Under the pieces are notes generated by a model. The model was not told where the DNA came from. It did no database searches and saw nothing but the letters and a program-made list of their open reading frames with translations. A stretch of DNA of 64,000 nucleotides from the NCBI RefSeq assembly GCF_024502345.1, contig NZ_JALDNN010000001.1, one strand, 5' to 3'. The DNA comes from Escherichia coli. GTDB lineage: Bacteria > Pseudomonadota > Gammaproteobacteria > Enterobacterales > Enterobacteriaceae. Each line of letters begins with the position of its first letter. Within the stretch, counting starts at the first letter, position 1. Below are positions 55,158 through 64,000 of this stretch, piece after piece. The position numbers and the translations under genes are program-made.

Positions 55158-55377
55158 GATTCACCTCTTTTGTCGAATGGTCGCCGCGGATTCTACTTAA
55201 CTTTGCTGCCCGAGACAGCACTCATTTCGCGGTCATCGAAACTAATTTAAACAAAAAGAGTCTGAAAATAGATGATAATAGGGCGTGTCTGTATGTAGAT
55301 TTGTTCGACAACGCTTTATAGTACCCTTCTGATAATAGTTAACCTTGGGGTGAGATGCCCCGATCCTGGAGATATGG

Positions 55378-56190
55378 ATGAAATCACTGTTTAAAGTAAC
55401 GCTGCTGGCGACCACAATGGCCGTTGCCCTGCATGCACCAATCACTTTTGCTGCTGAAGCTGCAAAACCTGCTACAACTGCTGACAGCAAAGCAGCGTTC
55501 AAAAATGACGATCAGAAGTCAGCTTATGCACTGGGTGCCTCGCTGGGTCGTTACATGGAAAACTCTCTAAAAGAACAAGAAAAACTGGGCATCAAACTGG
55601 ATAAAGATCAGCTGATCGCTGGTGTTCAGGATGCATTTGCTGATAAGAGCAAACTCTCCGACCAAGAGATCGAACAGACTCTGCAAGCATTCGAAGCTCG
55701 CGTGAAGTCTTCTGCTCAGGCGAAGATGGAAAAAGACGCGGCTGATAACGAAGCAAAAGGTAAAGAGTACCGCGAGAAATTTGCCAAAGAGAAAGGTGTG
55801 AAAACCTCTTCAACTGGTCTGGTTTATCAGGTAGTAGAAGCCGGTAAAGGCGAAGCACCGAAAGACAGCGATACTGTTGTAGTGAACTACAAAGGTACGC
55901 TGATCGACGGTAAAGAGTTCGACAACTCTTACACCCGTGGTGAACCGCTCTCTTTCCGTCTGGACGGTGTTATCCCGGGTTGGACAGAAGGTCTGAAGAA
56001 CATCAAGAAAGGCGGTAAAATCAAACTGGTTATTCCACCAGAACTGGCTTACGGCAAAGCGGGTGTTCCGGGGATCCCACCGAATTCTACCCTGGTGTTT
56101 GACGTAGAGCTGCTGGATGTGAAACCAGCGCCGAAGGCTGATGCAAAGCCGGAAGCTGATGCGAAAGCCGCAGATTCTGCTAAAAAATAA
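55378..56190 (+). CDS. fkpA: Periplasmic FKBP-type peptidyl-prolyl isomerase / chaperone FkpA
   Basis: 270-aa ORF with signal peptide and FKBP domain (GVIPGWTEGLKNIKKGGKIKLVIPPELAYG). Confidence 0.96.
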   Translation: MKSLFKVTLLATTMAVALHAPITFAAEAAKPATTADSKAAFKNDDQKSAYALGASLGRYMENSLKEQEKLGIKLDKDQLIAGVQDAFADKSKLSDQEIEQTLQAFEARVKSSAQAKMEKDAADNEAKGKEYREKFAKEKGVKTSSTGLVYQVVEAGKGEAPKDSDTVVVNYKGTLIDGKEFDNSYTRGEPLSFRLDGVIPGWTEGLKNIKKGGKIKLVIPPELAYGKAGVPGIPPNSTLVFDVELLDVKPAPKADAKPEADAKAADSAKK

Positions 56191-61410: not shown

Positions 61411-62652
<1,242 letters not shown>

Positions 62653-62678
62653 TTACACGTTAATTAGTTTTGAATTGA

Positions 62679-62703
62679 AAAGGGCGCTTCGGCGCCCTTT
62701 TTG
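62679..62703 (+). terminator. Rho-independent terminator of the str operon (after tufA)
   Basis: AAAGGGCGC-ttcg-GCGCCCTTTTT. Confidence 0.85.
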
Positions 62704-62779
62704 CTGCCCGTAATTTGAGCTCGAAATATTTAGTCGTAATTTTGCTCGCTGAACTATGGCGCAAATAAAACTGTGCTAT

Positions 62780-62798
62780 TGTAATCATAACTATTCTC
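62780..62798 (+). promoter_or_regulatory. Possible Fur box in the bfd promoter region
   Basis: TGTAATCATAACTATTCTC matches about 13 of 19 positions of GATAATGATAATCATTATC; about 40 bp upstream of bfd. Confidence 0.35.
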
Positions 62799-62834
62799 AT
62801 TTACACTTTGCGCAGAATTTGAACGGGAGCAATC

Positions 62835-63029
62835 ATGTACGTTTGTTTGTGTAATGGTGTAAGTGACAAAAAAATTCGCCAGGCAGTCCGTCAGTTTCAT
62901 CCGCAATCTTTCCAACAATTGCGTAAGTTTATTCCTGTGGGAAATCAATGTGGTAAGTGCATTCGCGCCGCGCGCGAAGTGATGCAGGACGAGTTGATGC
63001 AGATGCCAGAATTTAAAGAGATTGCTTGA
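62835..63029 (+). CDS. bfd: Bacterioferritin-associated ferredoxin
   Basis: 64-aa ORF MYVCLCNGVSDKKIRQAVRQ... with CxC...CxxC [2Fe-2S] ligands. Confidence 0.95.
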   Translation: MYVCLCNGVSDKKIRQAVRQFHPQSFQQLRKFIPVGNQCGKCIRAAREVMQDELMQMPEFKEIA

Positions 63030-63101
63030 AGCCCACGCTTATTTTTTGACAACCAGCTAGCCCCATCTACGCTCTAATAGTGGAAGCGGAGGGACTATAA
63101 A

Positions 63102-63578
63102 ATGAAAGGTGATGTTAAAATCATAAATTATCTCAATAAACTATTGGGAAATGAGCTTGTCGCAATCAATCAGTATTTTCTCCATGCCCGGATGTTTAAA
63201 AACTGGGGGCTGATGCGTCTCAATGACGTTGAATACCATGAATCCATCGATGAGATGAAACACGCTGATAAGTATATCGAGCGTATTTTGTTTTTAGAAG
63301 GAGTCCCCAACTTACAGGATTTAGGCAAACTGGGGATTGGTGAAGATGTCGAAGAGATGCTGCAATCCGACCTGCGATTAGAGCTGGAAGGCGCGAAGGA
63401 TCTGCGTGAGGCTATCGCATATGCCGACAGCGTTCATGACTATGTTAGCCGCGATATGATGATCGAGATCCTTGCTGATGAAGAAGGTCATATCGACTGG
63501 CTCGAAACTGAACTGGATCTCATCGGTAAAATCGGCCTACAAAATTACCTGCAATCACAAATTAAAGTTAAAGATTAA
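63102..63578 (+). CDS. bfr: Bacterioferritin
   Basis: 158-aa [40 protein letters not shown]... Confidence 0.97.
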
Positions 63579-64000
63579 CGGCCTATCAGCAAACTATCCC
63601 AGCCTATAACGAAACCCGCAGCCGCCAGAAATGGCCCAAAGGGCAGCGGGTTTTTTAATGATTCTTTTCCTCTCATGAGCAGACCAATAACTACGGCTCC
63701 GCAAGCGAATGAGGCAGCAAGGAAAACCAGTCGTGGTAAGAAGGCCCATGAATGCCAGGCGCCAAGGGCGGCGAGAAACTTCACATCACCATAGCCTAAT
63801 CCTTCTTTATGGCGCAGTATACGATACCCCCAGTAAATGACAGCGAATGTGCCGTAACCAACAATTGCCCCCCATAACGCATCGGCTAAACCATCAGGAT
63901 GACAAACTTGATAGAACAAAAGACCTGACCAGAGTAACGGGCACGTAAATCTGTCAGGTAACAAGCCATGCTTTGCATCCCAGAAAAAAAGTAGGGCTGA
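63575..64000 (-). CDS. hofD: Prepilin-peptidase-like leader peptidase HofD/HopD, 3' part; start lies beyond the window end
   Basis: Reverse-strand frame open to the window edge; hydrophobic ...[30 protein letters not shown]...[17 protein letters not shown]..., typical of A24 prepilin peptidases. Confidence 0.8.

Follow-up and report, generated by a model that had tools for sequence, protein, structure and literature searches.

The gene bfd, which encodes the bacterioferritin-associated ferredoxin, is an established member of the Fur regulon of E. coli. In E. coli K-12 MG1655, bfd is among the operons that show both upstream binding of Fur in ChIP-seq and Fur-dependent expression (Beauchene et al. 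2015, PMC4676285), and a lacZ fusion to the K-12 bfd promoter is repressed by Fur, more strongly so without oxygen (PMC4676285). Fur has also been mapped by ChIP-exo across nine E. coli strains, a study that yielded the iron-replete motif TGAnAATnATTcTCA (PMC10164565) and whose Dataset 2 gives, for eight strains, an intergenic Fur peak that is attributed to bfd and categorised as repressing (Gao et al. 2023, PMC10164565); when fur was knocked out in these eight strains, bfd expression rose by 2.27-7.30 log2 units (PMC10164565). Beyond these strains, bfd was up 5.9-fold in a fur mutant of Salmonella (PMC3212961), and a Fur box has been predicted at bfd with a PWM in an ExPEC strain (PMC4145685). 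Neither an EMSA nor a footprint nor a FURTA for the bfd promoter of E. coli came to light in the searchable literature. Fur control of bfd is firm; for the adjacent gene, bfr, a pattern of expression unlike that of bfd has been reported. Given the established place of bfd in the regulon, a Fur site at this gene adds little in itself.

Here we consider the bfd promoter as it occurs in a 64-kb stretch of E. coli DNA, the whole of which we refer to as the window. The features of the locus are as follows, in coordinates of the window.

62677..62702, plus strand: intrinsic terminator hairpin of tufA, AAAAGGGCGC-UUCG-GCGCCCUUUU (fold -18.5 kcal/mol, z = -2.06)
62779..62784, plus strand: putative -35 hexamer TTGTAA, 4/6, from the cross-genus alignment and homology to the K-12 hexamer
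62780..62798, no strand assigned: Fur-box match TGTAATCATAACTATTCTC, as originally reported, 13/19 to the 19-bp Fur consensus GATAATGATAATCATTATC
62785..62799, no strand assigned: core of the probable Fur operator, 7-1-7 type, TCATAAC-T-ATTCTCA (that is, TCATAACTATTCTCA), in the same register as the 19-mer
62786..62804, no strand assigned: second, overlapping Fur-consensus register, 13/19 on the reverse strand, offset by 6 nt
62802..62807, plus strand: putative -10 hexamer TACACT, 4/6 with A2 and T6, 17 nt after the -35 hexamer
62825..62829, plus strand: GGGAG, Shine-Dalgarno sequence of bfd, with 5 nt between it and the ATG, read from the sequence and conserved across genera
62835..63029, plus strand: bfd, bacterioferritin-associated [2Fe-2S] ferredoxin, 64 aa (PF04324, Fer2_BFD, E 9.7e-16; RefSeq WP_000289090.1)
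63102..63578, plus strand: bfr, bacterioferritin, 158 aa (PF00210, E 9.7e-38; RefSeq annotation)

A 471-bp region of the locus is 100% identical to several complete E. coli genomes, in which the genes are annotated as tuf, bfd and bfr. The tufA gene ends at 62652 and is followed by the terminator hairpin (GGGCGC-TTCG-GCGCCC, 62677-62702), which is bordered by A and T runs; a scan of 62500-63700 for consensus terminators called none, and the hairpin was recovered by folding. With a terminator at this position bfd has a promoter region of its own, of about 130 nt, and the upstream str operon is separated from the bfd promoter. On the far side of bfr, toward the end of the window, a short ORF for a GspO-like prepilin peptidase (63575-63964, minus strand) converges on bfr. 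In an identical genome this convergent ORF is annotated as a 155-aa prepilin peptidase, with rpsJ directly next to it, an arrangement from which it follows that this haplotype lacks gspC-M, the type II secretion genes found on the flank of bfr in K-12.

The original prediction, that a 13/19 match to the Fur consensus lies in the bfd promoter, was borne out when both the sequence and its position were recounted: the box occupies positions -55 to -37 relative to the bfd ATG (62835), that is, it lies 37-55 nt upstream. Its core, TCATAACTATTCTCA at 62785-62799, matches the 7-1-7 consensus TGATAATnATTATCA at 11/14 positions and the published ChIP-exo motif TGAnAATnATTcTCA at 11/13, and the three definitions of the motif (19-mer, 7-1-7 and ChIP-exo motif) agree on one register. 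The two half-sites of the core have modest dyad symmetry, with 4/7 positions complementary by hand count. The second register overlaps the first on the opposite strand, and overlapping registers that are phased by a hexamer are a typical trait of Fur operators. This second register and the agreement of the three definitions distinguish the bfd site.

Measured against the rest of the window, the match itself is unremarkable. The 19-mer finds 13 positions with at least 13/19 in the 64-kb window, against 6.3 +/- 2.3 expected from first-order Markov random sequences; the 7-1-7 consensus TGATAATnATTATCA finds 5 positions with at least 11/14 (2.2 expected), and the ChIP-exo motif TGAnAATnATTcTCA finds 2 with at least 11/13 (1.2 expected), the expectations again being those of the first-order Markov model. 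Under none of these three motif definitions does the window-wide count rise significantly above that of the random sequences, and the probability of meeting such a match in any given 100-bp promoter is approximately 1-2%. The top-scoring 19-mer of the window (15/19, at 22273) lies within a long ORF, and so does the majority of the remaining matches. Those other matches include 22273-22291 (the 15/19 match, inside the ORF at 21811-22974), 28011-28029 and 33034-33052 (14/19 each), and 55330-55344 (an 11/14 match to the 7-1-7 consensus just 5' of the ORF at 55378-56190); these four are most likely chance occurrences. With the bare number of matches close to chance, the score alone cannot support a Fur site at bfd. 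What establishes the site is its position, its conservation and its published occupancy, and not its score.

The conservation of the site extends well beyond E. coli. When aligned with bfd upstream regions from 18 other Enterobacterales (including Kluyvera, Enterobacter, Phytobacter, Buttiauxella, Pluralibacter, Siccibacter, Yokenella, Trabulsiella, Hafnia and Pantoea), DNA upstream of about -60 could not be aligned, and conservation sets in abruptly at TATTGTAATCATAAC.ATTCTCATTTACAC-TTTG. The best 7-1-7 match starts between -56 and -47 in 17/18 of these taxa, the right half, ATTCTCA, hardly varies between genera in the alignment, and the complete 19-mer TGTAATCATAACTATTCTC is found unchanged in Phytobacter, Buttiauxella and Escherichia sp. 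ESNIH1. No other non-coding block upstream of bfd is as well conserved across genera as the one that holds the Fur box. A broader sample was obtained from a species-level genome collection, in which the N-terminal Bfd pattern MYVCLCNG identified 120 loci, 112 of them (from Proteobacteria and Nitrospira) with enough upstream sequence for the Fur box to be sought. Among these bfd-like loci, a 7-1-7 match of at least 11/14 was present within 150 nt in 69/112, compared with 1.0 in shuffled sequences, and at -75 to -30 in 63/112, compared with 0.3 in shuffled sequences. Boxes of the TGACAATCATTCTCA type were found at the loci of Pseudomonas, Lysobacter, Alcanivorax, Marinomonas and Nitrospira.

Within E. 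coli, the bfd-bfr region exists as two haplotypes. The window and K-12 are 99.6% identical through tufA up to 62704, have no detectable similarity over 62705-62777, and become similar again in BLAST at 62778, from where they are 78% identical to 63562 (149/195 nt in bfd, 387/477 nt in bfr, and 140/158 aa in Bfr). Similarity therefore resumes exactly at the -35 hexamer and the Fur box. In K-12, chiA sits between tufA and bfd, whereas the window haplotype is without chiA. The window-type promoter is found in 2255/5426 complete E. coli genomes, and three of the strains profiled by ChIP-exo, namely W, 042 and Sakai, share the window arrangement, in which bfd comes straight after tuf, and encode the same Bfd protein (WP_000289090.1). 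Over the aligned positions 62650-62850, box included, Sakai does not differ from the window, and in W and 042 the sole difference in the box is a T to C change at the equivalent of 62792, the central, unconstrained base of the 7-1-7 motif. The two haplotypes are deeply diverged, share little non-coding sequence beyond the -35 hexamer, the Fur box and the -10 hexamer, and illustrate natural phylogenetic footprinting in a single species. One further upstream region deserves mention: at a locus (L125) from a MAG labelled Citrobacter sp. HRGM_Genome_0066, the DNA upstream of bfd hardly differs from the K-12-type allele in an alignment of 130 nt, apart from a few substitutions close to the box, which suggests either that E. 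coli DNA is present in this bin or that the lineage has the K-12-type haplotype in common with E. coli.

The W and 042 strains carry the window-type allele, and we placed their published Fur peaks on fetched genome regions. In E. coli W, the ChIP-exo peak at 3667868-80 corresponds to -55 to -43 from the bfd ATG, or 62780-62792 of the window; in E. coli 042, the peak at 3816258-70 corresponds to -46 to -34, or 62789-62801 (coordinates of PMC10164565, mapped by us). The centre of the peak is thus 3 bp upstream of the centre of the box in W (-3) and 6 bp downstream of it in 042 (+6). (Note that the Sakai peak coordinates refer to version.1 of the record, for which exact placement on version.2 is not possible.) In the four K-12-type strains of that study (W3110, BL21(DE3), Crooks and CFT073; PMC10164565), the 13-bp peak lies at about -65 to -53, approximately 16 bp upstream of the homologous box; either the coordinates are accurate only to 10-20 bp, or the contacts of Fur reach further upstream in these strains. 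Derepression of bfd in the fur knockouts amounted to 7.30, 3.11, 2.42 and 5.23 log2 units in strains of the K-12 type and to 3.58, 3.08, 5.52 and 2.27 in strains of the window type, with no systematic difference between the haplotypes among the 8 strains compared.

Approximately 145 bp downstream of the bfd peak, the ChIP-exo study lists another Fur peak, which it attributes to bfr (PMC10164565). It corresponds to about 62929-62941 of the window, inside the bfd coding sequence, and is reported only in the window-haplotype strains W, 042 and Sakai; no Fur-like motif of at least 11/19 or at least 9/14 was found in the bfd coding sequence or in the spacer between bfd and bfr. It is conceivable, though doubtful, that the two bfd-bfr haplotypes (78% identical) differ in how they engage Fur, with a peak on the box plus a second peak in the bfd coding sequence in the one and a single, upstream peak in the other. 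Were this so, the second site could provide separate, haplotype-specific control of bfr, and roughly 40% of E. coli strains would regulate the mobilisation of their stored iron in a different way.

The box is embedded in a putative core promoter of bfd. The TTG of the putative -35 hexamer TTGTAA is invariant across 20 enterobacterial sequences, and the TAnnnT pattern of the putative -10 hexamer is kept across genera in the alignment. A promoter scan of 62500-63700 at a threshold of 9/12 called none, TTGTAA-17-TACACT scoring 8/12; the homologous K-12 pair, TTGAAA-17-TATTTT, was the sole promoter-like site that the scan called in its intergenic region. We found no published, mapped transcription start site for bfd in the searchable literature. 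The Fur core (62785-62799) falls wholly within the 17-nt spacer between the putative hexamers, and the flanking Fur registers overlap the putative -35 hexamer by 5 nt and the putative -10 hexamer by 3 nt. A core that fills the spacer, with flanks over both hexamers, has the classical geometry of repression by occlusion. Moreover, conservation in the spacer equals that of the hexamers and falls on positions specified by the Fur motif, which speaks for an operator and not merely a promoter.

These findings make it highly probable (we would put it at about 90%) that 62780-62804, with its core at 62785-62799, is the operator through which Fur acts on the bfd promoter of E. coli. The operator as such is already known, the site of the same allele having been mapped previously by ChIP-exo. 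According to the model that we favor, when iron is plentiful, dimers of Fe2+-Fur would occupy the AT-rich array of hexamer-phased half-sites at 62780-62804, and the placement of the core in the spacer and of the registers over both hexamers would exclude RNA polymerase and keep bfd repressed. Under iron scarcity, Fur would depart and bfd would be transcribed, and the Bfd ferredoxin would then help to release the iron stored in bacterioferritin by reduction. The sequence and the published data show the match, where it lies, how it is conserved, that Fur occupies it in vivo in strains of this allele and that Fur represses bfd; we infer the exact -35 and -10 hexamers, the start site, occlusion as the way in which bfd is repressed and the bases that are contacted by Fur.

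Three other accounts of the site have to be weighed against an operator bound by Fur. The conserved block might be the core promoter only, with Fur binding elsewhere nearby, perhaps immediately upstream, and the 13/19 match a by-product of an AT-rich promoter. In keeping with this account, AT-rich promoter DNA looks like the Fur consensus, the match counts are not above chance, and the peaks of the four K-12-type strains are centred approximately 16 bp upstream of the homologous box. However, the sequence of a promoter spacer is not normally conserved, and here the spacer bases are kept as strongly as the hexamers, at positions of the Fur motif (ATTCTCA). In addition, the peaks of W and 042, which belong to the window-type allele, are on the box; the DNA upstream of 62776 is conserved neither within E. 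coli nor across genera, which leaves no alternative conserved operator there; and distant taxa hold a Fur box at the same distance despite having different promoters. We therefore regard a purely promoter-derived block as improbable.

Even less can be said for a chance match with no regulatory role, in which case iron would act on bfd by an indirect route, such as post-transcriptional control by RyhB or the action of another regulator. The weak score of 13/19 and the 11 other positions of the window with at least 13/19, almost all of them in long ORFs, are what one would expect of such a match, but Fur was cross-linked in vivo at the site (ChIP-exo, W and 042) and a transcriptional promoter-lacZ fusion of K-12 is repressed by Fur, data that largely refute an accidental match, and the site is strongly conserved besides. 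Just as improbable is an account in which some other protein with affinity for AT-rich DNA (H-NS, IscR, Zur or one like them) shares the site with Fur or is its main user, Fur being secondary. The region is indeed AT-rich, and chiA, the neighbour of bfd in the K-12-type arrangement, is silenced by H-NS. Yet we found no evidence for binding of this kind, the conserved bases track the Fur motif, the ChIP was of tagged Fur, and knocking out fur is by itself enough to raise bfd expression by up to 7 log2 units. We thus retain the reading of the site as a Fur operator.

That bfd would be under iron-dependent control by Fur, as had been suggested from the match, is accordingly supported by the ChIP-exo peaks, by derepression in fur knockouts, by the K-12 lacZ fusion and by conservation across genera. 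The caution that came with the suggestion, namely that a weak match makes it tentative, was justified as regards the score, which is truly weak; the interpretation holds nonetheless. The value of the case is mainly one of calibration, in that a match of 13/19 that is statistically unremarkable is yet a real operator.

The closest of the known systems is the K-12 bfd promoter, which has in common with that of the window the gene, the distance to the ATG, the putative layout of a -35 hexamer, 17 nt and a -10 hexamer, and repression by Fur. The K-12 box, TGAAATAAGAACTATTTTC, is identical to the window box, TGTAATCATAACTATTCTC, at 15/19 bases; the window box matches the consensus at 13/19 and the K-12 box at 11/19 (the latter by hand count), and the -10 hexamer is TACACT in the window and TATTTT in K-12. 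The bfd sites of W, 042 and Sakai, which are of the window haplotype, are in effect the same site as that of the window. Further afield, boxes of the TTGACAATCATTCTCA type in Pseudomonas and other Proteobacteria are found 45-75 nt ahead of the bfd start, with the same right half, ATTCTCA, as the window box. In the Pseudomonas-type taxa, which are known here from sequence only, a consensus -35 hexamer, TTGACA, falls on the left half of the box, whereas the box of the Enterobacterales lies 5-6 nt further downstream, within the spacer. The architecture of the bfd operator, AT-rich, hexamer-phased and overlapping the putative core promoter, is like that of the classical 19-bp Fur boxes (GATAATGATAATCATTATC) of siderophore and iron-uptake promoters; unlike those boxes, the one in the window is a weaker match (13/19), and the gene that it regulates mobilises stored iron and does not serve uptake.
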